Numbered from the stretch's first letter, positions 39,774 to 56,198 are shown. The stretch: DNA of 64,000 bases from Candidatus Adlerbacteria bacterium (GCA_963749085.1 CAVVLG010000002.1:370085-434084); one strand, 5' to 3'. The notes: generated by a model from the sequence alone, not told the origin. A program made the numbers and translations.

Positions 39774-40523
39774 ATGAAAGTATACTCAAGCGAACTTGCT
39801 CACAACTACAACTCATATACGTTCGGATACGCCATCTACGGCGAGCTTGAAAAAGATGATCGGCTGGAGTCTCTGTATAATATGGGCTTTCTTCCTTATA
39901 CCGGCTCTCCTGAGGCTCCCCATACCTTGTACATGGCGCGTAGTATGCGGGTTCCGCTTTCGCTCTTTACGTTGAGCAGTGAAAATCGTCGCATCGCAAA
40001 AAAATTTGACGATCAGTTTACCAAACAACGTGTACCTATGGCGCGCTTCAATCCTGACGAAAATTTTTTTTCGTTCTGTCTCGATTATTTTGCTGGCAAA
40101 CATGGGGCACGCGCAATGCCACGCGAACGTCTCCAATTTATTCTCAAAAGTCCGTTCATCACTGATATGGTGCTATACCGACAGAAAGAGAAGTTGGTCG
40201 CGTGTGTGTTTGAGATACGCGATGGCGGTGCGGGACATTATTGGTTTTCTTTCTATGATCTCTCAATGGCACGGCAATCGTTGGGACTGTGGCTTATGCT
40301 CGATGGCGTGCGGGATGCTCAGACCGCAGGATTCAAACACTATTATCTCGGCACAGTGTATGGAGAAAAAGCCCTTTATAAGACTAATTTTGAGCCCTTA
40401 GAGTGGTGGGATGGTCAAGATTGGCAAAGCGATTCTGATCTCCTTCGTGAACGCGGACGTACTGACAATACTCGTATCGTCGAATTGATGGACGCGTGGA
40501 AACAGAACAAAAGATTATTTTAG
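39774..40523 (+). CDS. ATE_C-like aminoacyl-tRNA-protein transferase-fold protein (Bpt/Ate1-related)
   Basis: 249 aa; HYWFSFYDLSMARQSLGLWLMLDGVRDAQTAGFKHYYLGTVYGEKALYKTNFEPLEWWDGQDW resembles ATE_C core (YxFYDP..SLG...YxYLGY...K..YK..F.P.E). Confidence 0.45.
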   Translation: MKVYSSELAHNYNSYTFGYAIYGELEKDDRLESLYNMGFLPYTGSPEAPHTLYMARSMRVPLSLFTLSSENRRIAKKFDDQFTKQRVPMARFNPDENFFSFCLDYFAGKHGARAMPRERLQFILKSPFITDMVLYRQKEKLVACVFEIRDGGAGHYWFSFYDLSMARQSLGLWLMLDGVRDAQTAGFKHYYLGTVYGEKALYKTNFEPLEWWDGQDWQSDSDLLRERGRTDNTRIVELMDAWKQNKRLF

Positions 40524-40678
40524 TGGACGATTAGTGACACCGGACGAACTTTACAATTTTATAGCGACCCATGCCGAAACGATACAGGTATGGAACGACG
40601 CAGTAAAGGCCTTTCTTGCGGAGGAGCACGCACCGGAGACATTGGCAGTAAAGCTATAAACCAAGTAAAATAAAGGGT

Positions 40679-40969
40679 ATGGAGCTGCGTCGCAAAGACA
40701 ATCTGACCGACCTTGTGGGATCACTGCCAAAAGAGCCAGGAGGAAATGGGGACACGTCTCAAGAGGACCCAAAAAACCAAGAGGTCATCACCGAGGGCGG
40801 TGAGGTTGTTATTTTGGGGCACAAACGACCTCCTGCCCCTCCTATTAACAACAGGAGAAATTCACTTGAACTAACAGAGGGCGAGAGTTTAGCGGGCGCG
40901 GTACGTTCTGGGATGCGCGATGTGCTTGAGCGTTTTTTTGCTAACTACAAGCAAAACAAGGATAAATGA
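40679..40969 (+). CDS. Hypothetical small protein
   Basis: 96-aa ORF, no recognisable domain. Confidence 0.3.
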   Translation: MELRRKDNLTDLVGSLPKEPGGNGDTSQEDPKNQEVITEGGEVVILGHKRPPAPPINNRRNSLELTEGESLAGAVRSGMRDVLERFFANYKQNKDK

Positions 40970-40987
40970 CCTTGAATAAACACGAAT

Positions 40988-41545
40988 ATGAAAAAGCCAC
41001 GAGAGGTAGAGGAAATGATAAAGCGAGCGATACGCGATGAACTTGCCTTGCACCCGCTCAAATCCGTAGCTCAAATCAGGGGTGCGCTGTGCAGGTATGG
41101 CTATCAAGCCGTACACGGGCCGCTCGACTGGCACTACATCAGCAAGCTGGTAAAGAAAGTGCGTCTTGAAAATCTGGCCTCCTTATTCCCGAAGGATAGA
41201 GCTGAACGCTTTGCCATGCTTAAAGAGCGACACCGGGCAATCACTGAAAAACTCATTCCAATAGTCGAGGGCGAGTATATGGCCACCTTCGACAAGATGG
41301 TGTACCCGACTCATGCAGAGCGCATCGCTGCGGCAAACGCGATACTCAAATGGGATCTCGCGCTTTTCTGTGCGGAGGAGCAAGTACAGGTACTCGAGCA
41401 GACGGAGAAGCGACAGAACGAGCCAATCAAGCTACATCCAATTGTGCTGGATCTACAACCTGGCACTCAAGCAGCGCGATATTCCACACTTTCGACACTG
41501 AAAAAAGAAGCTACTACTGTTCCGTTTCCTGCGGTTGCGGCGTAG
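40988..41545 (+). CDS. Hypothetical protein
   Basis: 185-aa ORF, no recognisable domain. Confidence 0.35.
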   Translation: MKKPREVEEMIKRAIRDELALHPLKSVAQIRGALCRYGYQAVHGPLDWHYISKLVKKVRLENLASLFPKDRAERFAMLKERHRAITEKLIPIVEGEYMATFDKMVYPTHAERIAAANAILKWDLALFCAEEQVQVLEQTEKRQNEPIKLHPIVLDLQPGTQAARYSTLSTLKKEATTVPFPAVAA

Positions 41546-42314
41546 CCGCGGCTTTCGCTTTCTTTTGTGGTTTAAGCGAGAGGACTTTCTGAAGCACGGA
41601 GGCTTTCTCCTGGGGCCGCACATACACTTCGGTTAGCACTTCCTTGACAGTTTCAACGAGAAAATGAAACTCTCCTTGGGACCACGGTTCCCAATCGCCC
41701 TCATGTAGTTGTTCACTCGTCATTCCCTGTATATTGGCAAGCGCATCAAAATACTCTGGCGGCACCATCGGGTGTTTGTCCTTGAGCACTTTGACACGGT
41801 CGCCATAGTCAATCGTTTCTCCTTTTTCACCTGTTTTGGATATCTGTTCCAACTCAAGCAGCTCGTAGATAGCTTTTCGCAAACAGCCGGATGCGCCGAC
41901 CAAGTAATTCATTTTCGCACACCCCTCTGCCTCCGACACTAATTTCCGAACCTTCTCATTGATACGATTGTCGAGCGTAAAAAAAGTTGTTGGTTGATGG
42001 TAGAAGAAGAGAGCGTCCAAGTCCAAGTCCTTTACGTATATATGTCCATCATCCTGTGCCGCTGGTATTCTGGTGAATTTGTCGTTGTAAAGACTAATGT
42101 CGTGATCGGACAGATGCAATGAGACTTTTTGACAGGTGTCTCCACCGCACTGAACTTGGTAGCCATAGACCATTCGATCGTTCGACCAATTAAAACGGAG
42201 TTTACCCACCACTGAATAAGTGATGGACTTACGATTGCAAAACGGACAATTGTACTTATCACGGTCAACAAAGTACTTGAGATCGAGATGGGATTGATCG
42301 TAGTTTTCTCTCAT
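41514..42314 (-). CDS. Hypothetical protein with N-terminal Cys4 zinc-ribbon (CPFC...C..C) and helical C-terminal domain
   Basis: 266 aa; YNCPFCNRKS...VQCGGDTCQK; Lys/Ala/Pro-rich tail. Confidence 0.45.
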   Translation of the reverse strand: MRENYDQSHLDLKYFVDRDKYNCPFCNRKSITYSVVGKLRFNWSNDRMVYGYQVQCGGDTCQKVSLHLSDHDISLYNDKFTRIPAAQDDGHIYVKDLDLDALFFYHQPTTFFTLDNRINEKVRKLVSEAEGCAKMNYLVGASGCLRKAIYELLELEQISKTGEKGETIDYGDRVKVLKDKHPMVPPEYFDALANIQGMTSEQLHEGDWEPWSQGEFHFLVETVKEVLTEVYVRPQEKASVLQKVLSLKPQKKAKAAATPQPQETEQ

Positions 42315-42361
42315 TTGCCACTATTCTACGCGCAATCAGCTTGCAGGGAAAGCAACGCGGA

Positions 42362-42646
42362 CTAAGGAGTGTTTATCCAATTCCACGCCTCCCGCGGAAG
42401 CCACCCTTGGCTTTGGGTTGGATCCACTCGTATCACTACGAGGTGTCGGCCCGGAACGCCCGGGAACGTGGCGTTGTAAAGCTGATTTACATTCAATCTC
42501 GATTTTACCAAGTACATACCGCCGGGAAGATGATGCCACCAAGCATAGATGTAATTGGGATACAGAACAGTAGTGATGTAATTGTGAAAAGCCGTAGGGT
42601 TGAACGGCAGACTGGTATTCACCGCGATAAGGTAGATATTATCCAT
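42362..42646 (-). CDS. Hypothetical protein
   Basis: 94-aa ORF, 8-bp overlap with upstream membrane-protein gene. Confidence 0.35.
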   Translation of the reverse strand: MDNIYLIAVNTSLPFNPTAFHNYITTVLYPNYIYAWWHHLPGGMYLVKSRLNVNQLYNATFPGVPGRHLVVIRVDPTQSQGWLPREAWNWINTP

Positions 42647-43076
42647 GGTCTTCTATTTGCCCCAGTGCGGTATCTGCTTCAGGTATTGGCGGGGGGTCAA
42701 CGCGGTCTTGTTCTTGAATTGGGTTATCCGGGTTCAAAACAGAGACGAGATCCCGTGGCGATGCCCGAAAGCCATGCGCTTGATCACCGAGCAACGTGAG
42801 CACTTGTTGTTGGATAACATGCTTCTCTGAGCGGAGCATATGAGGGCTTGTGAACATGAAAAACAAAAACGCACCAATCAGCGTTACAAGGACCAAACCA
42901 AACAAACAGATGACCAGTATCTGTGCGGTAGCGGATGAGACAAAAGCAATAACGGCTCCTCCGAAAAAAGCGGTTACAACAAGAGCAACGAGTAGAGGAT
43001 ACAGGGCGTTTGTCCTGCTAATTTGCGCAATAGCACCTTCGACATGTTGCCACAATTCACCCATCGCGATGCCCAT
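42639..43076 (-). CDS. Hypothetical membrane protein (2 TM)
   Basis: 145 aa; LYPLLVALVVTAFFGGAVIAFVSSATAQILVICLFGLVLVTLIGAFLFFMF. Confidence 0.45.
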   Translation of the reverse strand: MGIAMGELWQHVEGAIAQISRTNALYPLLVALVVTAFFGGAVIAFVSSATAQILVICLFGLVLVTLIGAFLFFMFTSPHMLRSEKHVIQQQVLTLLGDQAHGFRASPRDLVSVLNPDNPIQEQDRVDPPPIPEADTALGQIEDHG

Positions 43077-43163
43077 TGTACGCTGGCTATTTTAAAAGAA
43101 AAGAGCGCCCGCCGATCGAAACCGTGGGCGCCCGTAGTGTGTAGACAAACGCCGAAGCGTTGC

Positions 43164-44678
43164 TTACTTGATGTAGTAGTCGATGGTGAACCGCACCTGA
43201 TCCTTGTCTTCGTAGAGCACATTCATGCGAGCCGCGATACCCATCGTGGCACCCAGTTCAATGGTGCCGTAATAGGTGCCGGGAGCGCTTTCCGAAGCAA
43301 AGAAGGTGAAGTAATTGCCTCGCTGTGTCCCCTCTTGATTGGGGAACATTTTCCACGAGGTCGTGATGTCGGTCGCGAACGCCATCTGCGAGTTATTGGT
43401 GTTCTGGCCGAGATAGTAGAGAGTCTCGCCGTGGGGCAGCGTGACGGACTTCGACTTGGTGATCGTGAAGACCTCCTTGCCGGTGGTAGTTTCCGTAACG
43501 TAAGTCTGATAGGCCGCCGCGGCCGAGACATTCCATGAGTGCATCCAGTACCAGATACCGCCCACCGCGAGGCCGATAGCAAGGACGATCATGCCGCATA
43601 TGCGCAGAGCACGATTGCCTTCCTTCTTTGCTTCGCCGGTGTATACCTTTTGTCCACGGAAGAAGCCCGTTTCCTCGCTGCGGAGGTCATCGGAACTCCA
43701 TCCGTTCAGTGCATAAGCACCGAGGGCGACCGCAGGCGAGCCCTTGTAGGTGCTTGTCACGCGCTCAGTGTACTGCTCACTCTCCCGAACGACACGACGT
43801 CGGACGACTTCCTTCGTGATGTCGCCGGAGACGACGCGCAGTTCAGACCGGATCCATTCCGGCACGGTGCCGAGAAACTCGACAATCCGGCTGGGTATGC
43901 GTCCGGTGTAGTCACTGAGGCCATCGACTTTGGCACGCACAATATGATGATCGTGGCGCTCGACCGCTTCGGTGATTTTCACACGGCGACCTTCGACGGT
44001 CGAATACGTGGTCTGCTCGCCGAACGGAACGGTCAGGTCGACCGTGGTCTCGTTGCGGTTGGTCATCTCCACTTTCTCCGTCGCGTAAGGACGGAAATAG
44101 TAGTAGTGGCCAACCGTCGAGCCGGTGAAATGCACGATGCCAACGTATTCCTTTGCCACCAGCAAATCGAGCCAGAGACAGAAACGTTTCATCATGCTGT
44201 CGATGCCGGTGTCGACCTCCTGCTTAAGCTCCGCAAGGAGCTGGTCAGCGGGAAGTGCGGCACGTTCGGCGGGCAGATCAATGAGCGGAGCATCGGCGAG
44301 CGGCGGGATGTGCTCTTGTACGAAGCTCCACTGCTTCTTAACGTCTTCGTCCACCGAATAGCTGCCATTGTTCGTGCGTTTGATTGAGGCACGGACTGCG
44401 CCCTTCACCAGCCGCTGGAGATCATCCAGTCGGCCTTGAAAGAAAGCGACATCGATCCGGTAAGCGTCGAAGATAGTGTCGTGCTCGGCCCCGGACTTGA
44501 GTTCGAGAATAGCCGAAGCACTTCGCAAATAACCGACGAGGGGTTGGAACGTTTCCGGCACTTCCTGCACGAAACGCTCCTCGTCCTTCATGGTTGCGCC
44601 GAAGCTACGACCAAAAAGGGACAGCATCAGTTGGTTGGTGGTCATTGCACCACGTTCCGCCAGTCGCTGATTGCTCAC
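43164..44678 (-). CDS. Large hypothetical protein, ~365-aa N-terminal cytoplasmic region, single TM helix, ~120-aa C-terminal ectodomain
   Basis: 504 aa; TM ICGMIVLAIGLAVGGIWYWMH; no recognisable catalytic motif. Confidence 0.5.
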   Translation of the reverse strand: MSNQRLAERGAMTTNQLMLSLFGRSFGATMKDEERFVQEVPETFQPLVGYLRSASAILELKSGAEHDTIFDAYRIDVAFFQGRLDDLQRLVKGAVRASIKRTNNGSYSVDEDVKKQWSFVQEHIPPLADAPLIDLPAERAALPADQLLAELKQEVDTGIDSMMKRFCLWLDLLVAKEYVGIVHFTGSTVGHYYYFRPYATEKVEMTNRNETTVDLTVPFGEQTTYSTVEGRRVKITEAVERHDHHIVRAKVDGLSDYTGRIPSRIVEFLGTVPEWIRSELRVVSGDITKEVVRRRVVRESEQYTERVTSTYKGSPAVALGAYALNGWSSDDLRSEETGFFRGQKVYTGEAKKEGNRALRICGMIVLAIGLAVGGIWYWMHSWNVSAAAAYQTYVTETTTGKEVFTITKSKSVTLPHGETLYYLGQNTNNSQMAFATDITTSWKMFPNQEGTQRGNYFTFFASESAPGTYYGTIELGATMGIAARMNVLYEDKDQVRFTIDYYIK

Positions 44679-44794
44679 GTGAGATCTCCTTTGTTGTAGT
44701 TACACCATTGACGTCAATGTACAGTACCAAGTCGTCCATGGCTGGTCTTGGTACAGTGGCAAGACGATAGCATAAAGTAAATAAACTGTAAAGG

Positions 44795-45460
44795 TCAGTA
44801 GTAATCCTCAACACTCACGGTCCATTGGTTGCCGGTGTTGATGGTGAGATAAAACTCACCGCTTTCGTAGCAGTACGAGGTCTCCGATCCATCACCGATA
44901 ATATTCGCCATCACGGTGCACGATGATGATTGATCATCAGTACGGCCCGGGAAAATCTGGAAGTTGTACTGGCCTGTTGTCTGCCAGTTTACCCGCCACT
45001 GCGTGCCTTGTATCGTGAACGGTGCGGTGGTTTCAGTACCAGTGCCATTGAGCGTAGCAACGGTATGCCATGACGCTGTTGGAGTAGGCGCGGGTGTTGG
45101 AGCAGGAGCCGGAGTCGGCGCAGGAGTTGCGGCAGTTGTAGCCGGTTTTTGAACTGGTGCTGCTGTTGTCTGCGCTTGTGGCGCACTGGGTGCCACGGGA
45201 GCCGGAGTTGCTGATGTATTCGAGGTATTCAGCGCTTGAGACGTTGTGGCCACTGGGGACGCCGATGTTACCACAGGTTGCAACGTTGGAGGCATAGTGA
45301 TGCCAAATAAAATAAAGGAAACTATTGCTGCGCCACCAAATACCCAAGCGGCCATTTTGCGTGAGCGCATTTTCAGCAACTGTGGATTAGCGAGACCAGC
45401 TATAAGACCCGCGAGCGAGAGGAGAAAGAGAACAATAAAAAAGTCACTCATAATTTCCAC
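44795..45460 (-). CDS. Membrane-anchored protein with Pro/Thr/Ala-rich linker and ~100-aa C-terminal globular domain
   Basis: 221 aa; N-terminal 2 TM, linker TPAPTPAPAPTPAPTPT, C-terminal W/Y-rich domain. Confidence 0.5.
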   Translation of the reverse strand: MEIMSDFFIVLFLLSLAGLIAGLANPQLLKMRSRKMAAWVFGGAAIVSFILFGITMPPTLQPVVTSASPVATTSQALNTSNTSATPAPVAPSAPQAQTTAAPVQKPATTAATPAPTPAPAPTPAPTPTASWHTVATLNGTGTETTAPFTIQGTQWRVNWQTTGQYNFQIFPGRTDDQSSSCTVMANIIGDGSETSYCYESGEFYLTINTGNQWTVSVEDYY

Positions 45461-45850
45461 GCTTAGTTGTTAATCAACTGGAGCGGGCACTTTTGTACCA
45501 AAAAGCCCACCACGTGAGTGAGGGCTTGCGCCCTCCGTATCGGTTTCCCGATACGGCCGGTAAAGACAAATCCCACGCGATGGGGTTTTTGGTCTTTACC
45601 GGTCCACCGACCATATCGTCCGGCAGTATGCCAAACGGGTTAGGTCGTTGCCCTCGCGGGCTATTCAGTTGTGGCTTCATGATATAGCAGGTCGCCATAT
45701 CCGCATAGGGTCAGGCGGAGCAAGTGCCCAGTAGCTTTTAGGGACCAATTCGCGCCACAGAGGACCCCAACAAGCCACAAGGGGTGCAAAACATGGGCGG
45801 GGTGTGGGTAGCTCCACTTCCCCGCCAGTATCCGATATAGTCATGTCTGT

Positions 45851-46450
45851 ATGGCTATGCCAGAGACACGAACGGAGTTGCTCGAGGTGTTAATCAAAAG
45901 CCTCCAGCCGGAGGAGAAAATTGAGGAGCAAAAAAGCTACCGTTACGTTATCTATGCCCGCAAATCAACCGATGATAAAGAAAAACAAGTACGCTCACTA
46001 TCCGACCAGATCGCCGAGTGCAGAGAATATGCCGAAAGAAATGGACTTAGGGTCGGGAAAGACGATGTAATTCAGGAGTCGGAAAGCGCAAAACAGGCTG
46101 ATACGCGCCCGAAATTCCGCATGATGCTCGAGACACTAAAGGCGGGCAAGTACGACGGCATCCTCGCATGGCACCCCGACCGCCTCGCGCGCAACATGAA
46201 AGACGCTGGAGAAATTATAGATCTGCTCGACAAACACATCATCAAAGCGCTCAGGTTCGTGAGTTTTTCCTTCGAAAATACGCCGAGTGGCAAGATGCTC
46301 CTCGGGATTACCTTCGTGTTGTCAAAACAATATAGCGATCAACTAAGTGAGAATGTGAGCCGTGGCAACAAGCGCAGTATCGAGGAGGGCAAATACGTCG
46401 GTCGGGCGAAACATGGTTATTATAAAGACCCCAGTGGCTATCTCCGCCAG
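45851..46450 (+). pseudogene. Large serine recombinase, N-terminal fragment (resolvase catalytic domain + start of recombinase domain) truncated at tRNA-Leu
   Basis: YVIYARKSTDDKEKQVRSLSDQ (catalytic Ser), WHPDRLARN; ...GKYVGRAKHGYYKDPSGYL begins recombinase domain; ORF track extends to 46558 only by reading through the antisense of tRNA-Leu. Confidence 0.65.
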
Positions 46451-46532
46451 TGGGCATGGGGAGACTCGAACTCCCAAGTCTTGCGACATACGCTTCTGAG
46501 ACGTACGCGTATACCAATTCCGCCACATGCCC
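46451..46532 (-). tRNA. tRNA-Leu: tRNA-Leu (anticodon CAG), class II with 13-nt variable arm
   Basis: Hand-folded cloverleaf: GGGCATG/CATGCCC acceptor, anticodon stem TACGT/GCGTA with loop CTCAGAA, T-arm GGGAG-TTCGAGT-CTCCC; no encoded CCA. Confidence 0.75.
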
Positions 46533-46929
46533 GTGATCTTTACCTTACACCAAAATAGGTGATGCAGGACGAATGCCTTTAGCCGGTAGTTTCGGCATTG
46601 ACAGGTTTGACTAACTGCCCTGCATGTGGACAAGCTGTGGAAAAACTGGTGATAAAAGCTCGTTCACAGACTTTACATAAGACGTGTATATTATGGCGGT
46701 GTACACCCGGTAGGTTCTGAGAAGCTGCGTTCTTCCTGCAGTTTCTGAAGTCGCGGGAGAGGAAGGGGCAGTCGGGTCCGTGACTGCATCTGGCGTATTG
46801 AGCCTACTCTGTTACGGGTGTACCTCGGCTGTCCCTTCCATTCAAACAGAGGGTTCCCGTTTGTACCGGCATCGTGTACACCTGTGCCGGTACTGCCAGG
46901 AGCCCGGATAGTCGGCATAGCGTACACCT

Positions 46930-48898
46930 ATGTCCCCTTCCCTGGAACCCCAAGGTTACACGCTGCCGGTAGGCACCAACTTATACGTATCTTTTATGCG
47001 CACGATACGTCAACAGGATATCGTTTCTTTTCTTGCCGTCTTTATTTCCATACTGGTCGCGATCAAATTAAACCAGTACATCTTTTTTCATTTCAATACC
47101 AGCCCGGCGATCATTTTTCTGCCGACAGGTATCGCGCTGGCGGCGGTCTATCTGGGAGGCTATCGCATGTGGGTACCTATAGCCGCTGCATGGTTTCTTG
47201 GCTCGGTGACCAGTTTCTCGCACCCTACTCTCGTAGTGGATGCCGCGGCCACGGTCGGCTACACGCTTGAAGCGGTCATCGGCGGGTATGCACTTGCACG
47301 CCTGAAATTTGTAGGTGATCTGGCACGCACCCGTGACGCCTTTATACTCATCGCCGCTTCCTTGTTGCTTCCCGTCATCGCGCCAAGCATCACCGCGAGT
47401 GTACAGTGGCTGACCCATGCGCTCCCCAGCTCAGTGTGGGTGACGTGGAGCCGCGCGTGGGCCGGAGGCGCACTGAACATACTCGTGTTATTGCCGCTCA
47501 TCACCACCTGGTATAGAGATCGTACAACAAAAACTTTTAGAAAACTGCTTGAAATTACTCTGGCTCTCCTCGCCCTCGCGTTCGTTACCTATCTGGTCTT
47601 TTGGAGCCCGCTTGTGCAGGCTAATGGATTCATTGTGTTGTATGCGCTCTTTGCTATCTTGTTTTGGATAGGATTACGGATGCACCCCAGAATTATTACG
47701 ACTGCCGTGTTCCTAGTCATGCTGCTCAGCTTCGCCGGTAGCCTCATTGCCCGCCCCACCACAACAACGAAGCTTGATCAACAGCTGCTTTCCGATGAAT
47801 TGTTTATCGTTCTCATCGTCCCCATATTTTTAATTCTCGCCGCATTGGTGGAAGAGCGTCGGGTGAAAGAGCGGGAACTTGAAGAAGCGATCGATAAGCT
47901 TTCGCAGGAAGACCAGGCAAAAAATGAATTCCTGGCGACGCTTGCGCATGAGTTGCGCAACCCCCTGGCCCCGATAGTGAGTTCGCTTGAACTCATGAGA
48001 CTGGAGGCTCGGCAGTTGGCTCGACCTAATCTTATGCAGCTCATTGACGTCACCGACCGGTATAATGCGATGATTGTTCATTTACTTGATGATCTTTTGG
48101 ATATTTCCCGCATATCACACAGGAAGTTCAAGCTCCAAAAGGAAAGCTTGGAGTTGCGCCCAGTTGTCGAACACGCGGTACGGACGGTCGATGCTATGTA
48201 CAAAGCCAACAACCACACGCTCTCCGTATCAATGCCGGAGGAGACATTATGGATCGAGGCGGACCCCCTGCGGCTAAGGCAGATCCTTATCAATCTCCTC
48301 AACAATGCCGCAAAATATACCAACCCAGGAGGGAATATTGTATTAAGCGTCGTGTTTGACCCGGATCGTGGCTTGCGCATCAGTGTGAGAGATAACGGGG
48401 TGGGGATCGAACCGCACATGCTGAAGAAAATCTTCGAGCCGTTCGTGCAGTCGGATGAGAGCAGGTCGGGGCTCGGCATTGGACTTTCACTGACTAATCA
48501 TCTGGTGAACCTTCACGATGGCGTAGTGTGGGCGGAGAGCGAAGGATTGGGCAGAGGAAGCGATTTCATCGTAGTCTTGCCCGGCGCTGACAGAGTGCGG
48601 TTGCCACTTCGGGTAGCAACCCCAAAACGCCGCCGAAGAGAATTTCCTTTCATCGGAAAAAGGAGCCAACGAAAACGCTCTATTCTCATTGTTGATGACA
48701 ACAAAGCCGCGGCAGAGAGCCTCGGCAAACTGCTGGAGCACGGCAGTCATACCGTCGCGTTTGCCTATGACGGGTCGAGTGCGATTGCAAAAATGAAGAA
48801 TGCCGAAGCGGACGCGGTACTGCTCGACATTGAACTTCCTGATATGGACGGATATGAGGTCGCACGAAGTTTGCGGCAAGAACATGGTTACAATTCTC
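46930..48898 (+). CDS. Hybrid sensor histidine kinase (MASE1-like membrane sensor, HisKA, HATPase_c, C-terminal receiver) - receiver domain interrupted by IS insertion
   Basis: ORF 46930..48927; EFLATLAHELRNPLAPI (H-box), GLGIGLSL, receiver start RSILIVDDNKAAAESL...LDIELPDMDGYEVARSLRQEHGYNSL then IS; more likely start MRTIRQQ at 46996. Confidence 0.8.
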
Positions 48899-48965
48899 TA
48901 GAACCAATCTCAAAAATACCGTTGTAGACTAAAGGCACAGGGCGTTACCCGTAATTTGCCTGCCC

Positions 48966-49508
48966 ATGCCTCTCACCAACGAGCAGTGGAGCGTCATCGC
49001 TCCGTTTGTCACACCCCTCAAGCGTTTGGAAACCCGCGGCCGTCCCCGGCAGGACGACCGCAAGATACTGGAAGGTATCCTCTGGGCACTGAAGACCGGC
49101 GCCCAGTGGAAGCACCTGCCGAAAGACTACCCGCCCTACCAGACCTGCCATCGCAGGTTCCAGCAGTGGGTGGAGAGCGGCGCCTTTGACCGCATCGTCG
49201 AAGCCCTGGCCATGGACATGGAATACCGGGGGCGCATCAAGCTCAGGAGCTGCTTTCTCGATGCCACCTTCGCGGGGGCAAAAAAGGGGGTCTTGGCGTG
49301 GGACCCACGAAGCGTGGGAAAGGCACCAAGATCATGGCGATTGCGGACGAAGGCTCTCTTCCAGTCGCCGTCTATGTGGCCTCTGCTTCTCCGAGCGAAG
49401 TCCGGTTGGTTGAAGACACGCTTGCCCGGCGATTTACCCGACAGAATCCGCTTCGCCTCACGGCTGACCGAGCATATGATTCCGATCCGCTGGATGGAAC
49501 GCTCCTGA
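48966..49508 (+). CDS. IS5-family transposase OrfA (N-terminal DUF4096-like part)
   Basis: 180-aa ORF; slippery heptamer A AAA AAG at 49280..49286 allows -1 shift into OrfB. Confidence 0.75.
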   Translation: MPLTNEQWSVIAPFVTPLKRLETRGRPRQDDRKILEGILWALKTGAQWKHLPKDYPPYQTCHRRFQQWVESGAFDRIVEALAMDMEYRGRIKLRSCFLDATFAGAKKGVLAWDPRSVGKAPRSWRLRTKALFQSPSMWPLLLRAKSGWLKTRLPGDLPDRIRFASRLTEHMIPIRWMERS

Positions 49509-49738
49509 ACAAATACCGCATCAAACTCATTTCACCGCATCGCAGAGGCCGGGTGCGCAGAGCAACACAGGACGGCAGGGCGCTGCGCTCCTACAAGCGC
49601 CGGTGGAAGATTGAGCGGCTGTTCGCGTGGATGCACAACTGGAGAAAGCTCGTGACTCGCTACGAATACAAACTGCAGAACTTTGCCGCCTTCGTGAAGC
49701 TCGCGTGCATCATGCTATTACTCAAACATTATTTTTGA
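49298..49738 (+). CDS. IS5-family transposase OrfB (DDE domain), expressed as OrfAB fusion by -1 frameshift
   Basis: 146-aa ORF in -1 frame relative to OrfA; predicted fusion ...DATFAGAKKGGLGVGPTKRGKGTKIMAIADEG... Confidence 0.75.
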   Translation: MGPTKRGKGTKIMAIADEGSLPVAVYVASASPSEVRLVEDTLARRFTRQNPLRLTADRAYDSDPLDGTLLNKYRIKLISPHRRGRVRRATQDGRALRSYKRRWKIERLFAWMHNWRKLVTRYEYKLQNFAAFVKLACIMLLLKHYF

Positions 49739-49749
49739 GACTGGTTCTA

Positions 49750-49923
49750 GTACTTGTTGCGCTCACGGGCTACGGACAGGAAGAGGATAAAATAAAAGCG
49801 CAAGAGGCCGGATTCAATCATCACCTGACCAAGCCTGTTAGTATTGCAGATGTCGAAGCTATCCTCGCGAAGGATACATCCAACCCCCCCCGGCACGCGG
49901 ACGACAATTCTTTAACTAAGTAG
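49750..49923 (+). pseudogene. 3' fragment of the interrupted histidine-kinase receiver domain
   Basis: Removing IS plus one TA restores ...LRQEHGYNSLVLVALTGYGQEEDKIKAQEAGFNHHLTKPVSIADVEAIL... in the kinase frame. Confidence 0.8.
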
Positions 49924-50080
49924 GTCACTCTGTTCGCCCAATCCATCAATCTTTATGCCTCTCATGGGCTGCGCAGATACACGCCATACACAAAATACTA
50001 CGCTCCACTACGGGCAGCTTTTCTGATTATTGAAATAGCCTCCCCAGCCCAAACACCCAATAAGGTATACTAGTCTGCAT

Positions 50081-50575
50081 ATGCTAGAGCAATATGCATC
50101 GTTCTTCGCAGCGAGTTCGCAGGCATCGGCCGCTTTGGTCGGGCTTCTTTTTGTTGCACTTTCTATTGACGTCGACCTCGAGCGGGGATTTCGGTTCAAG
50201 CAATTTGCATTTTCTGAAACCGCGTTCATATCGCTTGGGGGTATCTTTATCATCTCACTTTTGGCGCTATTGCCCTCTGGCCTGTTGCTGATGACGGGTG
50301 CCAGTATCGTCCTTTCTGTCATCGGCATTTGGGGCTTGCTGCGGCGCACACACCCCCAGATCAAGCTGGTGCTGCTGCCAGTGGATTTTTGGCAGGTCTT
50401 TGTGACCGTCGGCGTCTATATATGGCTCGCGGGCACAAGCCTATGGTTATTGACGGTGGAAGAGTCAGTAACTTTGTTAAATATATTCTGCATGTTGCTG
50501 GGGATACTATATGTGCTTTCTCTCATACGTGCATGGCGCTCACTTCTTATCATCAAACATTATATGTCTAATTAG
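50081..50575 (+). CDS. Hypothetical membrane protein (4-5 TM)
   Basis: 164-aa hydrophobic ORF. Confidence 0.45.
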   Translation: MLEQYASFFAASSQASAALVGLLFVALSIDVDLERGFRFKQFAFSETAFISLGGIFIISLLALLPSGLLLMTGASIVLSVIGIWGLLRRTHPQIKLVLLPVDFWQVFVTVGVYIWLAGTSLWLLTVEESVTLLNIFCMLLGILYVLSLIRAWRSLLIIKHYMSN

Positions 50576-50646
50576 GGGGAGATTTACCGCTTCATATTCG
50601 CTACAGCACCCCCATAAGGATTTCTTGGGCGATTTCAATGTACCAG

Positions 50647-50772
50647 ACTTAGGCGTCCCGGTCGGGGGCACTGGCATGCGCGGATATTTGAATGACGTTC
50701 GAACCGTCATTCTATAGGGGAAGACTGAGTTTAGCTATAAGCCGCTTACGCTGATGGCAAAGGTGACACAGC
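50647..50772 (+). repeat. ~125-bp repeat element, copy A (direct repeat of 54659..54784, ~80% identity), contains hairpin GAATGACG-TTCGAAC-CGTCATTC
   Basis: By-eye alignment cccggtcgggggcacYggcRtgYgcggatatttgaatgacgtYcgaaccRtcattcta...ctgagttt...cttacg...atggcRaagg. Confidence 0.6.
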
Positions 50773-50834
50773 TTCGTTAAACTGTCCCGCACAGTCCAAA
50801 TAGATACTTTCGCCAGTCGTGATATACTTAAAGT

Positions 50835-51014
50835 ATGAATAAGACTCGCAAGAAAAATGTCTCTTTGAGTGACCTCTACCAGGAAGTCCGGGCCTTGCGC
50901 CGGGACGTGTCGGTGTTCATACCCACCGAGTCCCTAGACGATTACAAAAACAAAACGGAAATAGTTGCCGCACATCGCGATGCGCGAAAACAAGCTCGAG
51001 CCAGAGAGGTATAG
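50835..51014 (+). CDS. Putative antitoxin (59 aa), partner of RelE/ParE toxin
   Basis: Hand-translated MNKTRKKNVSLSDLYQEVRALRRDVSVFIPTESLDDYKNKTEIVAAHRDARKQARARGV; below ORF-track length cutoff; stop 2 bp before toxin ATG. Confidence 0.45.
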   Translation: MNKTRKKNVSLSDLYQEVRALRRDVSVFIPTESLDDYKNKTEIVAAHRDARKQARAREV

Positions 51015-51016
51015 CT

Positions 51017-51271
51017 ATGCGGATTATCCGCACACTGAAGTTTGAAAAGATGCCCGAACGGCTGCCCGCATCCGTACAAAAGGCGTACGTCGAGCAAGAA
51101 ACGATTTTGCAGGGGAATCCCAAAGATCCTCGCCTCCATTTGAAGAAATTGCAAGGGATTTATGACACCTATTCCTTCCGCATAACCCGCTCTTACCGAG
51201 CACTTTTCATTTGGGAAGTTAATACCGTCTGGCTGTTCGCCATCGGTGATCGAAAAGACATTTATCGATAG
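51017..51271 (+). CDS. relE: Type II toxin, RelE/ParE superfamily
   Basis: 84 aa; KDPRLHLKKLQGIYDTYSFRITRSYRALFIWEVNTVWLFAIGDRKDIY. Confidence 0.7.
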   Translation: MRIIRTLKFEKMPERLPASVQKAYVEQETILQGNPKDPRLHLKKLQGIYDTYSFRITRSYRALFIWEVNTVWLFAIGDRKDIYR

Positions 51272-51301
51272 AGGTTTCGATCTCACTAGAGCCGTTGATG
51301 A

Positions 51302-53167
51302 CTACTGACCCAAAACCCCTCTCGTCAATGGGCCCACATAGCCCGCTACAGGAGATATATTGTTGAGCATTTGGTACTGCATGACCGCGTTTCGCGTCAG
51401 CGGCCCGAAATAGCCGGTCACCAATGCCTCAGGATAGTAGCCATTGTTTGCCAGGTGGGTCTGAAGCGCAATCACGTCAGGGCCTTGCACCCCTTGATAT
51501 AAGTCGCGGGAAAGCATGAGGGGCGTGGTCACTGCGGCTTCCGCGGCAGGGATATCAACCTGTTCTTCGCCGGCTTGCGGGGTGACGTTAAACCGCGAGG
51601 CAGTGGTGAATCTGCCGTATTGGTCATAGGAGTAAAGCGCATAGTGATATTCGACGCCGTTTTCAACGTCAGTATCCGTAAAAGTCGTTGAGGGGCCGTC
51701 GTAAATGATATCGCCATCAATGCGCGAGAGTACTGCGTCGCTGCCTTCTTTTTTGACGATAACCGTATGGATAGTTCCGTTTTGGATGCCGGTGTCTTTG
51801 AGCCAGTCGAAGGAGACCTCCCCGTCGAGTGGCGTAACGTTGAGAAGCAGCGGATGTGAATGCACCACCGGCAGGCCGCCACCTCCCTGGGCCGCTGCCG
51901 CTTGTGCTCCTTGCTCGGCAATAGTTGCCAGGACTTCTGCACTGCTTGAAGCAGTGGGTTCGGAAGATACGGGTTCAGTCGGCGTCGAAGTACCGGAAGA
52001 CAACAATGATTCGGTGGTAAATGTCCTGTCCTTGCCGAATGCTGTGTTTCCGTCGCTGTCGGCAGCGACGATACGGAAGTGATACAAGGTCGAGGGAGTG
52101 AGAGTATTGATAGTTCGACTGTGCGACGTCTGCAACGTTTGGTCGTTTCCAAGAGATGAGCCATAGGACGTGCTCGTCCCGTATTGAATATCGGATGTCG
52201 CCGGTTCAGAAGTTGTCCACGAAATGGTTATCGTCGAGGTTGAAAGAGAACTCGTCGCCACGTTCGAGATGATCGGATATATAGGCGCAGCTTGCACTTT
52301 GAGCGTTGTGAAAGTTTCGGCGAGACTGTACGCCGTTTCGCCGGAAGAGGTTTTTGAGATGGCGCGATAATAATATTTAGTGTTCGGTGTTAATGATGAG
52401 AGAGACGCCGAATGAGATTGGGATATAGGTCCTAAGGCGGTGAGTGAGCCGTAGGTATTGGTTGGGCCGTATTCGACTTGCGAGTCGGCATCCTGGTTAG
52501 TTTGCCATGTGATAGTGGCTGTCGAGGAACTTACTTGTGACGTCTCGGTATTGGAGATTGCCAGAGCGGGCGCCGGGGGAGTCGATGAAGCAGACTCCAT
52601 GTTCTCTGTCGTTGTCGCTGCGGAAGTTGCTTCGGTTTGTGTTGTCTCGTTATTCTCCGGAGTAGAGGTTGCAGCTGTTGAAGTCGATGTCTCTTCAGCT
52701 GGCGGCTCAACTGGCTCCGATACAGGAGTCGCGAGCGTCGTGAATGTCTCATCACCTGTTATGGCCGCCGTCCCCGCGCTGTCTACGACCACGACGCGAT
52801 AGTGGTAGAGGGTCTCCGGTGTGAGATTCTCAAGGACAAATGATGGCGAGGTAGTGAACTCGCTCGTGAGCGGGGTTGAAGCGCCGTACTCCTCAGTGGT
52901 GCCATACTCGACATACCCTTGCACCATCTCATCTGAATTCACATCTATTTCTGCGCTTGTGTCGGTGATATTGGTAACAGAAATGCTTGAAATTGAGGGG
53001 CCGACCGGAGCGGGAGGGGCCATTTCTTCGGTCGGCGGCGGAGTCATTTCCTCTACAGGAGGAGCAGTATCATTGGTAGTATCCGCTGGGAGCGTTTGGG
53101 CAAGAACTGACGCGATTGGGGTAAAGAGAATGGAACAAGAGAGTACTGCGGAGAATATTTTGATCAT
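51302..53167 (-). CDS. Secreted protein: signal peptide, three fibronectin-type-III-like repeats, C-terminal peptidoglycan-binding (PG_binding_1-like) domain
   Basis: 621 aa; MIKIFSAVLSCSILFTPIASVLA; repeated YHYRVVVVDSAGTAAITGDETFTT / YYYRAISKTSSGETAYSLAETFTT / YHFRIVAADSDGNTAFGKDRTFTT; C-terminal DVIALQTHLANNGYY...GYFGPLTRNAVMQYQ. Confidence 0.65.
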   Translation of the reverse strand: MIKIFSAVLSCSILFTPIASVLAQTLPADTTNDTAPPVEEMTPPPTEEMAPPAPVGPSISSISVTNITDTSAEIDVNSDEMVQGYVEYGTTEEYGASTPLTSEFTTSPSFVLENLTPETLYHYRVVVVDSAGTAAITGDETFTTLATPVSEPVEPPAEETSTSTAATSTPENNETTQTEATSAATTTENMESASSTPPAPALAISNTETSQVSSSTATITWQTNQDADSQVEYGPTNTYGSLTALGPISQSHSASLSSLTPNTKYYYRAISKTSSGETAYSLAETFTTLKVQAAPIYPIISNVATSSLSTSTITISWTTSEPATSDIQYGTSTSYGSSLGNDQTLQTSHSRTINTLTPSTLYHFRIVAADSDGNTAFGKDRTFTTESLLSSGTSTPTEPVSSEPTASSSAEVLATIAEQGAQAAAAQGGGGLPVVHSHPLLLNVTPLDGEVSFDWLKDTGIQNGTIHTVIVKKEGSDAVLSRIDGDIIYDGPSTTFTDTDVENGVEYHYALYSYDQYGRFTTASRFNVTPQAGEEQVDIPAAEAAVTTPLMLSRDLYQGVQGPDVIALQTHLANNGYYPEALVTGYFGPLTRNAVMQYQMLNNISPVAGYVGPLTRGVLGQ

Positions 53168-53358
53168 AATTTTGAAATCTCTTTTAAGTCTTTGTCCGGC
53201 AGGTAGAGAATAAGTAAACCGATAATAATTCCGCCAATAGCTGTCCAGATATGGCTACCGCCAAAGAGATACACATCCATTTTGTCGAGCAGATACCAAA
53301 TGCCACGCCATACCAGCACTATCCCGACCACTATTGCTATAATCCGTACAGTCTTCAT
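53164..53358 (-). CDS. Small membrane protein (2 TM)
   Basis: 64-aa hydrophobic ORF, ATGA overlap with downstream gene. Confidence 0.4.
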   Translation of the reverse strand: MKTVRIIAIVVGIVLVWRGIWYLLDKMDVYLFGGSHIWTAIGGIIIGLLILYLPDKDLKEISKL

Positions 53359-53399
53359 AGCCGTAAGTGTAGCACTCTAATGTCTGCTACACTGCAGGT

Positions 53400-53699
53400 A
53401 TGTTGCTGAAGGAGTTTATACATTTTTTGAAAGAGTATAAGGTCGTGTCCCTAGCAGTGGCTTTTATCATGGGTACGGCAGCTACTAACTTGGTTGACTC
53501 TTTGGTAAAGAATATATTCCTTCCTTTGCTGGCACCACTCCAAGCGGCGGAGACTTGGGATAAAGCGGTGCTCTCTATAGGACCGGTCACACTAACCTAT
53601 GGAGCGTTCCTCGACGAGCTTATTAATTTTATTATCCTCGGCTTCCTGGTGTTCCTGTTGGCGCGAAAGCTGCTCACCATGGAAAAGGAAGGAAAATAA
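53400..53699 (+). CDS. mscL: Large-conductance mechanosensitive channel MscL
   Basis: 99 aa; LKEFIHFLKEYKVVSLAVAFIMGTAATNLVDSLVKNIFLPLL ... TYGAFLDELINFIILGFLVFLL. Confidence 0.85.
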   Translation: MLLKEFIHFLKEYKVVSLAVAFIMGTAATNLVDSLVKNIFLPLLAPLQAAETWDKAVLSIGPVTLTYGAFLDELINFIILGFLVFLLARKLLTMEKEGK

Positions 53700-53702
53700 T
53701 CT

Positions 53703-54347
53703 ATGACATTTCTTTTTGAAACGAGGCCTTTCAGTGAGGAGAGCAAGCGCGCAGCGGTGGACAAGCTGCTTGAAGCGGCCTTGCCTGATAGAGACTTTTA
53801 TTTATTGGTCATCGGCGCGGCGCTCTTTGCGCTTGGCGGCATCGCTTTGGACAGTATTCCGGTCCTTATCGGTGCCATGATAGTGGCTCCACTTGCCGCA
53901 CCCATCTTGGCGCTGGGACTTGGCATTGCGACGGGCGATTGGTATCTTGCTGTGCGTTCGGTCATAACCTTGATAGCGGCATCGCTTGCCGCGGCGATCG
54001 TGGCAGCGATAGCGGCACACCTGCTTCCGCCGTTTAGCATAGATGGTACCTTTATATCCTTTGTGGCACACCCTCTGTATGACGCTGCTATCGCCTTTAT
54101 AGCCGGTGCCATAGCTGCATATGGCTATGTGCGGGCAAAAGCAGGCGGAGCATTGACTGGAATCGGCGTTGCGGTATCACTTATGCCACCTTTGGTTGCC
54201 AGTGCGCTTGCGTTTGGCACGCTTGATGTGCCGCTCCTGAAGGAATCATCGCTTATCTTTATATTGAACGTAGTGGGTATACTCGTAGGTTCTATACTCG
54301 TCTTTTCCCTATTCGGGATGCACGCGTATTACGAAAGGAAATCCTAG
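53703..54347 (+). CDS. DUF389-like hydrophobic membrane protein
   Basis: 214 aa, Ala/Gly-rich TM helices; family assignment tentative. Confidence 0.45.
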   Translation: MTFLFETRPFSEESKRAAVDKLLEAALPDRDFYLLVIGAALFALGGIALDSIPVLIGAMIVAPLAAPILALGLGIATGDWYLAVRSVITLIAASLAAAIVAAIAAHLLPPFSIDGTFISFVAHPLYDAAIAFIAGAIAAYGYVRAKAGGALTGIGVAVSLMPPLVASALAFGTLDVPLLKESSLIFILNVVGILVGSILVFSLFGMHAYYERKS

Positions 54348-54550
54348 CCGCTTTTATTTAAAAAGAAAAAGATAGAGGGACAGGAGCACCAGCACAATAA
54401 GTGAGGTTTGCATCACGAGTGCAGAATCCCACAGCGATACACCGAACACGATTACTGCGCCGATAAGCGGGAGCACTCCTGTGGTGATGTTTTTCATACA
54501 GCTAAGTATATCAGGTTATTTTTAGAGCTCGTACTCATCTTCTTCTATCT

Positions 54551-54566
54551 TATGACGGCGCTAGGG
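54551..54566. repeat. 16-nt copy of the tRNA-Ile 3' end (gcgctagggatcgaac): att-site-like remnant
   Basis: Identical to 57957..57972 within the intact tRNA-Ile gene. Confidence 0.45.
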
Positions 54567-54658
54567 ATCGAACTAAGAAAACGCTTTCGTTGAGCCATAA
54601 AAAATTTTGAGCAAAAAAGGGCGAACTGGACATGTCCAAAAAATGGCTCTGTTGAGCC

Positions 54659-54784
54659 ATCCCGGTCGGGGGCACCGGCGTGTGCGGATATTTGAATGAC
54701 GTCCGAACCATCATTCTACGGGGAAAAACTGAGTTTGGGTATAAACCACTTACGTTAATGGCGAAGGCAGTGCAGGGTGATTGA
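54659..54784 (+). repeat. ~125-bp repeat element, copy B (see 50647..50772)
   Basis: Same as copy A. Confidence 0.6.
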
Positions 54785-54810
54785 GTCTACCCAGCCAGAT
54801 TTTGTTGAAA

Positions 54811-55041
54811 TCAACTTAACCACTCTCCTTCAGGTATGCCTGACTGTTTGATTATCGAGCTTAATGTCTTAGGGTGGATGGTATCAGATCCATGATATTG
54901 CACATGGGTCATGCGTAGCTGTCCATCCTTGAATCCCCGAAAATAATGGTGGCTTCCCCGAATGTGATGGGGAACGAAACTATTCGCCTTTAGAAATTTC
55001 TCTACATCCTTGAAGGTCCAGTTTGATTTACCTCTAGGCAT
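54811..55041 (-). CDS. hicA: Type II toxin HicA (mRNA interferase)
   Basis: 76 aa; KDVEKFLKANSFVPHHIRGSHHYF...IHPKTLSSIIKQSGIPEGE. Confidence 0.8.
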   Translation of the reverse strand: MPRGKSNWTFKDVEKFLKANSFVPHHIRGSHHYFRGFKDGQLRMTHVQYHGSDTIHPKTLSSIIKQSGIPEGEWLS

Positions 55042-55386: not shown

Positions 55387-55603
55387 GGGATCAGTCTACC
55401 ACAAACGAGCCCCTCCCGTGAAGGAGGGGCTCTCGGAGGCCGAAGCCACTTGTAGTCAGACGGTACACCTTGGCAGATGAAAAGCAAGTGTATCCAGGGT
55501 TGCCACAATCGAGAGAGAAAGCCGGTCGTCTGCGAGATGAATCTCACAAATCGACCGGTCTTTTTGCCGTGCGTCTCAACTCTATCATTTCCCCCAATGA
55601 GGC

Positions 55604-56051: not shown

Positions 56052-56198
56052 GGTTCTCCTCCAAAGTGTTGGTTGCTTCTAAAGAAAATATACCATGGTC
56101 AGATTAAATTCTTGTCCCCTGGTTGCACAGGGTCGCGGGAAAATCCCGAATGTAGTTCCAGTATAGCATTAAGGATTTAACCATCAAAAAACACCACG

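Follow-up and report, generated by a model that had tools for sequence, protein, structure and literature searches.

A predicted integrative element with a split serine-recombinase gene and a LOOT RNA at a tRNA-Leu gene of a Candidatus Adlerbacteria bacterium

The 64,000-nt stretch of Candidatus Adlerbacteria DNA analyzed here (GCA_963749085.1, CAVVLG010000002.1:370085-434084; referred to below as the window) carries a block of about 6 kb between a gene of the ATE_C family and the gene for tRNA-Leu(CAG). This block, a candidate integrative element whose intact size is 6.95 kb, had been described in an earlier note as an accessory island of seven open reading frames (ORFs) with no confident family, ending in a truncated gene of a large serine recombinase (LSR). 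The ORFs of that description are all present at the positions, on the strands and with the sizes claimed for them, and a Kyte-Doolittle scan agrees with the transmembrane (TM) topologies proposed for the 145-, 504- and 221-aa proteins. Searches of Pfam, NCBIfam and PADLOC returned nothing significant for the seven ORFs, and PHROGs gave a single exception, the 145-aa protein. Three features had been overlooked: an RNA of the Rfam LOOT family, a split recombinase gene, and a second island across tRNA-Leu. The features of the locus are listed here from left to right; L-numbers denote the comparison loci and contigs that were fetched, and L071 is a contig carrying an intact allele of the element.

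40521-40526, plus strand: attL core TAGTGG, the left junction, overlapping the stop codon of the ATE_C-family gene, with host DNA to the left and element DNA to the right
40522-40659, plus strand: detached 3' end of the LSR gene (45 codons and TAA, coding for SGRLVTPDELYNFIATHAETIQVWNDAVKAFLAEEHAPETLAVKL), containing the P' arm of attP, GTGGAC-N15-ACGAAC
40679-40969, plus strand: ORF A, 96 aa, part of the backbone and, in the circular form, the gene immediately after that of the LSR
40988-41545, plus strand: ORF B, 185 aa, a backbone gene with an all-helical product
41514-42314, minus strand: ORF C, 266 aa, with a Cys4 zinc-ribbon beta domain at the N terminus and a helical, HEPN-like domain at the C terminus
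42362-42646, minus strand: ORF D, 94 aa, soluble cargo, with an 8-nt overlap with ORF E
42639-43076, minus strand: ORF E, 145 aa, a two-TM cargo protein
43164-44678, minus strand: ORF F, 504 aa, a cargo protein with one TM segment and a cytoplasmic part of ~355 aa
44795-45460, minus strand: ORF G, 221 aa (218 aa if started at the ATG at 45451), a membrane protein whose linker is rich in Pro, Thr and Ala, encoded by the first gene downstream of LOOT
45520-45646, minus strand: LOOT RNA, Rfam core (whole unit, 45498-45673)
45851-46558, plus strand: the 235-aa recombinase ORF as called, running on through the tRNA antisense
45857-46448, plus strand: LSR gene remnant, Resolvase catalytic domain only, ~197-199 codons
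46448/46449: deletion junction, with 1,022 bp of L071 missing and no microhomology
46450-46532, minus strand: tRNA-Leu(CAG), the integration target, gene intact (ARAGORN; Rfam score of 56.4 bits, the same as in relatives)

The status of the block as an island was assessed from the tRNA-Leu locus of related genomes. With the ATE_C protein as the query, 70 loci were retrieved from a species-level genome collection, the closest of which (50-63% identity) came from metagenome-assembled genomes of Patescibacteria. The window element is flanked by genes for a TP_methylase (RsmI-like), a Mur ligase and the ATE_C-family protein, and seven relatives share the order RsmI-like gene, Mur ligase gene, ATE_C gene, tRNA-Leu(CAG), tRNA-Ile(GAT) as far as their contigs extend, with the 16S gene next after tRNA-Ile in those whose contig reaches far enough. 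The distance between the ATE_C gene and tRNA-Leu is 5.9 kb in the window, as opposed to 15 bp in L009 and 0.7-1.8 kb in the other relatives, and tblastn searches with ORFs A-G gave zero matches in all 70 loci. Because the seven syntenic relatives have a short gap and none of these ORFs, the 5.9-kb block is an insertion, in line with the island proposed earlier. The GC content that had been suggested as a further marker did not bear this out: it varies from 0.47 to 0.565 per kb within the island, which is not distinct from the rest of the window, so the island has no compositional anomaly by this measure.

The sole recombinase encoded at 40524-46532 is of the serine type, and no tyrosine integrase was found in this segment. 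The 235-aa ORF contains a complete Resolvase domain (PF00239, 2.9e-26, residues 33-182) and aligns to positions 77-254 only of the 651-position LSR integrase profile phrog_95; the combination of a full catalytic domain with a partial match to the LSR profile identifies this ORF as an N-terminal LSR fragment. The C-terminal Recombinase and zinc-ribbon DNA-binding domains are absent (deleted) from the window copy. They are found in L071, a 7,003-bp Logan contig from ERR12036785 that was obtained by an exact-protein look-up with the 504-aa ORF. This contig is identical to window positions 40497-46448 over 5,952 of 5,952 bp, then has 1,022 bp that are absent from the window, and then resumes with window positions 46449-46477, the 3' end of the tRNA (in blastn coordinates, L071 1052-7003 matches window 46448-40497 with 100% identity, and L071 1-29 corresponds to window 46477-46449). 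The LSR encoded in L071 has the Resolvase, Recombinase (PF07508, 8.7e-9) and Zn_ribbon_recom (PF13408, 8.6e-9) domains, and its gene stops inside the tRNA antisense, with a product of 554 aa. The window remnant is 100% identical to the first 199 residues of this protein; homology ends at 46448 (codon 199), and the remainder of the ORF is tRNA antisense. Since L071 carries the extra 1,022 bp that complete the LSR, the window represents a deletion allele. This alignment confirms the earlier claim that the LSR gene is cut about 200 aa in at the 3' end of tRNA-Leu and that the 235-aa product arises by antisense read-through; the more general proposal of an integrated element at tRNA-Leu with a broken recombinase gains support from both synteny and the intact allele. 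The deletion is clean, without microhomology, and its junction lies two nucleotides past the discriminator base of the tRNA and one nucleotide from the att core.

The other end of the recombinase gene was located by comparing the window with sister elements. Homologs of A and B were detected by tblastn in L155, L159 and L158, in the same order and at the LSR-distal end. In the DNA upstream of gene A, compared among four elements, similarity starts abruptly at (A/T)GTGGGC (window positions 40522-40527) and does not extend leftwards; the TAGTGG of this left junction also precedes the tRNA in the intact allele L071, and the ~135 nt that follow the junction form an open frame. Circularization in silico yields uninterrupted LSR ORFs of 583 aa for the window element completed from L071 and of 581 aa for L155 and L159, whose C-terminal tails are homologous and fit the pattern ...ELY..IAT....(I/L)..WN..(V/M)..FLA(E/Q)E..PE(T/A)L...L*. 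The same tail is found in the 577-aa database homolog P0075, which is encoded on contig L166. This contig of 4,929 bp has a terminal overlap of 30 nt, the k-1 signature of a k=31 assembly, and thus represents a circular form of 4,899 bp. Its LSR, 50% identical to that of the window element, is encoded by a contig-internal ORF that includes attP (AACGGTGGGCGTAAGCATACCACGCTCGAAC) and is followed by an A-like ORF. The circular contig, together with the in-frame circularization of three integrated copies, places attP within the LSR ORF. Integration swaps the last 45 residues of the LSR for ~16 residues encoded by the tRNA antisense. A long displaced tRNA fragment was not found at the left end, where the tRNA-like repeat of the window consists only of the 6-nt TAGTGG and a degenerate tRNA-like P' arm; the position of the left junction was set by the comparison of elements.

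The predicted attP of the window element reads ...AAAGTAAACAAT/AGTGGACGATTAGTGACACC..., and the predicted empty attB reads ...AAAGATTATTT/TAGTGGGCATGGGGAGACTCG.... The P' arms conform to GTGGRC-N15-NCGAAC in five of five cases. The B' arm within tRNA-Leu, GTGGGC-N10-TCGAAC, is found in all five attR copies, in four of the five relatives of attR copies and in six of the seven empty sites with both motifs intact. In attP sites of LSRs, the outer (zinc-ribbon) motif is reportedly shifted 5 bp outward relative to attB; the N15 and N10 spacings differ by exactly such a +5-bp shift, which supports the att assignment as far as this rule holds. The blocks common to attL and attR are TAGTGG in the window, TAGTGGGC in L155 and GTGGGC in L159, and their intersection is GTGG. 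From this intersection we infer that the crossover, including its exact dinucleotide, would fall on the last bases of the acceptor stem, the discriminator base and the base that opens the trailer, leaving the tRNA intact.

In the mechanism that we propose, an LSR of ~583 aa made from the circular form would recombine its internal attP with the attB at the 3' end of tRNA-Leu, the common core being (TA)GTGG. Integration would leave the tRNA whole and split the LSR gene: the last 45 codons would stay at the left end beside A and B, and the gene body at the right end would terminate in ~16 tRNA-antisense codons to give the 554-aa product. Between these ends would lie the LOOT gene, under a promoter and terminator of its own, and the cargo operon G-F-E-D-C on the minus strand. 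The change of the C terminus may alter the activity or the direction of the recombinase, and A and/or B may help recombination. The 1,022-bp deletion took from the recombinase its DNA-binding, zinc-ribbon and coiled-coil parts, and with their loss the element would be unable to excise by itself. Very probably, then, window positions ~40522-46448 hold a small site-specific integrative element of a host from the Patescibacteria (the candidate phyla radiation, CPR), in an integrated copy that is now immobilized.

The intact LSR has 2,046 homologs at E<1e-30, the top ones being 46-70% identical and ~540-560 aa long; those that carry a name are mostly labeled Parcubacteria, Paceibacterota, Kaiserbacteria or Patescibacteria. 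No LSR among 50,697 phage records exceeds 28.5% identity to this protein, and none among 72,556 plasmid records exceeds 24%. The association of these genes with tRNA genes was surveyed in 80 metagenome loci and several contigs with close LSR homologs, of which 66, with the end of the ORF on the contig, could be assessed. In 52 of the 66, an antisense tRNA gene lies inside or adjoins the final 250 nt of the LSR frame: the tRNA 3' end is at -90 to +60 nt from the LSR stop codon in 34 loci, and the tRNA lies inside the last 250 nt of the extended frame in a further 18. Chance adjacency is ~1% by our own rough estimate, which assumes one tRNA gene per 15-20 kb. Twelve tRNA specificities are represented (Leu, Pro, Gly, Ser, Tyr, Glu, Val, Gln, Lys, Ile, Asn and Ala), and the association of these LSR genes with tRNA genes is a property of the whole family. 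The 5.3-kb element of L094 is bounded by two identical 16-nt copies of the tRNA-Pro 3' end in direct orientation, and in the region 3953-11313 of L072 the gene of another LSR, with 548 aa and 31% identity, runs into the 3' end of tRNA-Gln in antisense. Four Levybacteria contigs from four different samples (L160-L163, positions 1-6792) carry one ~7-kb LSR element with identical gene content, namely, an HTH_17 gene, an AAA_15/21 ATPase gene with a 202-aa partner, LOOT (3102-3221) and, at the end, a gene of the ORF C family; beyond the element, the next gene is at 7190 on the minus strand in L160, L162 and L163 and at 7193 on the plus strand in L161.

According to the Islander paper, serine integrases are not known to target tRNA genes, so that the locus could hardly be the "classic signature" of an integrated element that the earlier note had seen in it. 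The integrative and mobilizable elements with serine recombinases that are described in the literature insert into dispensable genes. No description of a tRNA-targeting, gene-splitting, LOOT-carrying family of LSR elements was found in the literature that was searched.

The LOOT RNA (RF03000; Weinberg et al. 2017, PMC5737381) of the window scores 82.8 bits against a gathering score of 46.4 and covers positions 1-121 of the 121 in the model. A covariance model built from the window copy and the Rfam consensus detected LOOT in nine further distinct LSR elements (L078, L091, L094, L106, L133, L158, L159, the element shared by L160-163, and the circular L166), whose LSRs are 24-59% identical to that of the window, for a total of ten. 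It was found neither in 1.1 Mb of other (control) loci nor in the seven syntenic relatives, so its interpretation as an ancestral part of the locus was rejected. In every element, LOOT is antiparallel to the LSR gene, on the cargo strand, and lies 45-60 nt upstream of the next gene on the same strand, which usually codes for a membrane or secreted protein. Compensatory changes were seen in 32 of the 43 base pairs among 8 distinct copies, with 93.3% of the cells paired as opposed to 28-41% in slid controls, in an alignment that had been fitted to the model and therefore favors the structure. Thus, the membership of this RNA in the LOOT family and its linkage to these elements are matters of observation. 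The wider interpretation, to which we give about an even chance, is that the Patescibacteria harbor a widespread family of 5-8-kb circular/integrative elements with an LSR that acts on many tRNA 3' ends, an attP inside the LSR gene and LOOT as a component, of which the window element is a freshly disabled member.

The seven ORFs do not all belong to the cargo, as the earlier note had assumed: A and B recur in sister elements and are therefore part of the backbone, and the cargo assignment was retained for G, F, E, D and C. ORF A belongs to no protein family in Pfam, NCBIfam, PADLOC or PHROGs. ORF B has a small helical domain at its N terminus together with a helical hairpin that is long, and a fold search with it returned generic helical hairpins only. 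The possibility that it is small-terminase-like was rejected, since hhalign gave probabilities below 1% when it was compared with the terminase-like ORFs of L160 and L094; the 134-aa ORF of L094 had itself been guessed to be Terminase_2-like, which Pfam did not confirm.

Among the cargo proteins, ORF C has 450 homologs that are 70-75% identical across CPR classes and ~45% identical in Omnitrophota. Its AlphaFold2 model, which is confident (pLDDT of 88), pairs a zinc-ribbon beta domain at the N terminus with a helical domain at the C terminus, and the best fold matches of the latter in the PDB are HEPN proteins, so that ORF C is predicted to have a HEPN-like four-helix fold that lacks the catalytic motif. 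Neither ORF C nor 48 members of its family matched a HEPN or DUF4145 sequence model at E<=1, and inspection of the family alignment showed the Rx4-6H motif to be absent (there is no Arg 4-6 residues before a His); Ser199, His203 and Glu204 are invariant, and Gln195 is nearly so. One ORF C homolog is the gene at the LSR-distal end of the Levybacteria element, which is of a distant lineage, together with LOOT, the AAA_15/21 ATPase and the HTH_17 gene, and another adjoins a restriction-modification system and an Abi_C gene. ORF D has no homolog in any fetched locus. ORF E has its TM segments within residues 23-81 and matches phrog_27377, a family of unknown function, at 1.4e-7. ORF F has one TM segment (residues 356-379) and only 8 relatives among 5.8 billion proteins. 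These are encoded either among variable genes beside a tRNA-abutting LSR, as in L072, where the ORF F homolog (62% identical) lies ~5.8 kb from tRNA-Gln, past the LSR and several small ORFs, or among housekeeping genes, as in L073 and L074. The cytoplasmic part of ORF F contains an invariant ERHDHH cluster (residues 240-245) that could be a metal site. ORF G has two N-terminal hydrophobic segments, and its N-terminal TM region is 47% identical to the product of the gene downstream of LOOT in L159. None of the relatives of D, E and G is informative. Profiles of the C, B and F families found nothing in the PDB and Pfam.

The earlier note had also proposed that the cargo could be a defense or abortive infection (Abi) system and had noted, as a weak impression, a likeness between the zinc-ribbon protein and DUF4145. 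The HEPN-like fold of ORF C would fit this proposal; the likeness to DUF4145 was not supported, and no PADLOC system was found. Specifically, G, F, E, D and C might form an anti-phage or Abi-type cassette in which the membrane proteins would sense or anchor and ORF C would be an RNase effector. In addition to the fold of ORF C and the homolog that adjoins the restriction-modification and Abi_C genes, this would fit the cargo that sister elements hold in the same slot, which is of a defense or toxin-antitoxin type (DUF4411/PIN and HTH-Peptidase_M78 in L094 and AAA_15/AAA_21 ATPases in L160 and L166). However, searches of PADLOC-DB 2.0 gave no significant match to a defense model, with the best E-values of 0.005-0.02 falling on short low-complexity or TM stretches; ORF C lacks the canonical Rx4-6H motif; and no phage homologs were found. 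Moreover, C is present in other elements without D-G, and F stands by itself amid housekeeping genes, which means that the five do not make up a conserved system. With no known defense system, no DUF4145 and no Rx4-6H motif, a function of this kind is a guess by analogy with the sister cargo: a defense or exclusion role is plausible on those grounds at a rather low probability, and the cassette as such appears equally doubtful.

The LOOT core is part of a larger conserved unit. It is preceded by a conserved 5' extension, CACAACTGAATA (45673-45662), and by a -10-like box farther upstream (45686-45681), and it is followed by a terminator hairpin with a U-run (45522-45498), whose conserved sequence is CCCRYGGYGGGCTTTTTG. 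The 5' motif and the terminator are kept in the 8 copies that were inspected, with the 5' motif diverged in L094. On the strength of this unit of 5' motif, -10-like box and terminator, LOOT looks like an independent RNA of ~175 nt. It might instead be a cis-acting leader, either an attenuator or a riboswitch-like element, of the downstream membrane protein gene, as its constant placement ahead of a same-strand gene for a mostly membrane or secreted protein would suggest; further, the flagged terminator stem (45522-45506) overlaps the last LOOT hairpin in three bases only (45522-45520). Against such a leader, all 8 inspected copies have the strong conserved terminator after LOOT, the last hairpin and the terminator coexist in the minimum-free-energy fold that was predicted, the genes downstream of LOOT in different elements show no homology to one another, and the Rfam class of LOOT is sRNA; we consider the leader improbable and the independent RNA the better description. 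A role of LOOT as a bridge or guide RNA was rejected, as cognate LOOT/att pairs share 5-7 nt that are identical or complementary, compared with 6-11 nt in noncognate pairs, and the 5' motif stays constant across elements while the tRNA targets vary. With no cognate-specific complementarity to att or tRNA, LOOT is not a target guide. Between the 5' motif and the core of the window copy lies a hairpin with a GNRA cap, GCCC-GCGA-GGGC (45650-45661, minus strand), which has the form GCCC-GUGA-GGGC in L159 and is lacking in the other copies. No functional literature on LOOT was found in the literature searched; the motif is said to have come from unclassified aquatic metagenome sequence only, with neither genetic context nor function.

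Several observations weigh against the interpretation of the locus as a disabled member of such a family. In 14 of the 66 assessable loci, one of which is the circular form, the LSR gene has no nearby antisense tRNA. The 6-nt repeat TAGTGG that flanks the window element is weak evidence when taken alone, and the nearest genomes with an empty site are distant (57-63% identity in the flanking protein). For the window element itself, neither an empty site nor a circular junction is on record, and an exact search of viral contigs for its predicted attP found nothing. No replication, transfer or packaging genes were recognized in it. Finally, the deletion allele is recorded in one assembly only, as is the intact allele, the latter in a single Logan assembly.

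This last point raises the possibility that the deletion reflects a faulty assembly or is confined to a minority variant, the element being intact and mobile in the living population. The intact allele is identical across the other 5,952 bp; the truncated product (233 aa) is on record only from the 518-kb NCBI/ENA contig, unlike the other island proteins, which are seen in Logan as well; and the junction is suspiciously near the att core. On the other hand, the junction has no shared k-mer or microhomology that could mislead a de Bruijn assembler, and the deletion halts just before an essential tRNA, as a real deletion that survived would. An artifact or a minority variant thus appears distinctly unlikely, and the deletion is most likely a real polymorphism. 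The first deleted bases, CAGACGATAC (L071 1040-1051), have GACGAT in common with the P' arm GTGGACGATTAG (40523-40534), which may hint at an involvement of the recombinase. A deletion by an LSR-type crossover was found to be unsupported, as the junction does not share a legitimate 2-bp core. The element could also be a phage satellite or a degraded prophage, given its small size, its site-specific integration and the weak matches to Terminase_2 in an ORF of L160 and to Terminase_5 in a 150-aa HTH protein of L166, but this is very unlikely: no capsid, portal, primase or other phage hallmark genes were found in the window element, its PHROGs matches are limited to the integrase profile and one family of unknown function, ORF B is unrelated to the terminase-like ORFs, the LSR and the ORF C family have no relatives in 2.9 million viral contigs, and the LSR is as far from those in phage records as noted above. 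A plasmid-like or tycheposon-like integrative element remains the preferred description.

Tycheposons of Prochlorococcus, which were compared by their description, are likewise small, cargo-carrying elements of streamlined genomes that use tRNA genes and have modular cargo (Hackl et al., bioRxiv 10.1101/2020.12.28.424599). A minority of them bear an LSR, according to the same preprint, whereas the elements described here have an LSR throughout the family, a CPR host, attP within the recombinase gene and, in many cases, LOOT, and no replication module was recognized. The presence of attP within the integrase gene and a tRNA target are known from Mx8 IntP/IntX and from SSV-type elements, where integration gives the gene a new 3' end (Mx8) or splits it (SSV). 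Those enzymes are tyrosine recombinases, whereas here the enzyme is an LSR, of a different fold and chemistry, in which 45 of 583 residues are exchanged, so the relation is one of analogy and not of membership. Bxb1, phiC31, A118/LI, SCCmec Ccr and XisF share with the window LSR the order of Resolvase, Recombinase, zinc ribbon and coiled coil, a short att core and the 5-bp half-site offset, and the best NCBIfam matches of the LSR are XisF and CcrB, below the cutoff. Unlike it, characterized serine integrases target protein-coding or dispensable genes rather than tRNA genes, and their own genes are not split. The window element also differs from islands of the Islander type, which use tyrosine integrases, in having a serine recombinase, and from phage satellites (PICI, P4-like and PLE) in having no phage-derived packaging, capsid-remodeling or primase-replicase genes. 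Its LOOT resembles the Rfam motif in the full-length match and the four-hairpin, tetraloop-rich structure; new are the CPR host, the fixed place in a mobile element, the conserved 5' extension and the terminator of its own. In comparison with the HEPN toxins and RNases (HEPN-MNT, Csm6, LsoA and the AbiA C-terminal domain), ORF C has an extra N-terminal zinc-ribbon beta domain and no Rx4-6H motif.

On the other side of tRNA-Leu, the window contains a second island (46533-57950), which separates tRNA-Leu from tRNA-Ile by 11.4 kb as opposed to 28-64 bp in relatives. A 186-aa ORF at 57361-57921 (plus strand) has the catalytic domain of a tyrosine integrase (PF00589, 4e-32), looks N-terminally short and ends 30 nt from the 3' end of tRNA-Ile (57951-58024). 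Other genes of this island code for an FN3/PG_binding_1 protein (51302-53167), MscL (53400-53699) and a DUF389 protein (53703-54347). A hybrid histidine kinase of MASE1-HisKA-HATPase-receiver architecture is encoded at 46930-49923, with its receiver domain interrupted by an insertion sequence of the IS4/IS5 family whose transposase is split over two frames (DUF4096 at 48966-49508 and DDE_Tnp_1 at 49298-49738); the same-strand ORF after it (49627-49923), which has no Pfam match, is putatively the rest of the receiver domain. The 16S rRNA gene is at 60020-61485 (minus strand), and no 23S rRNA was found anywhere in the window at the Rfam gathering threshold, so the rRNA genes appear to be unlinked. 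In relatives, the 16S gene is followed by tRNA-Ile and tRNA-Leu. With an island on either side of tRNA-Leu, the rRNA/tRNA-Ile/tRNA-Leu locus of the window is marked as a double integration hot spot.

The CPR, or Patescibacteria, account for much of the diversity of bacteria with genomes that are tiny and supposedly static, and their mobile elements are barely characterized. The present interpretation accounts for a 6-kb block of genes that had seemed unannotatable. If it is correct, the common rule that tRNA genes are the targets of tyrosine integrases alone would be overturned, and these elements would provide a serine-recombinase case of a self-splitting integrase gene, which may be a directionality switch that works without, or beside, a separate directionality factor. 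Such a switch matters because LSRs are prime tools of genome engineering, for which the family would also supply, as a resource, a large set of diverged LSR/att pairs with conserved tRNA attB sites. The orphan LOOT RNA, for its part, would gain a host lineage and a fixed genetic context in the mobile elements of these bacteria, which would make its function experimentally approachable.

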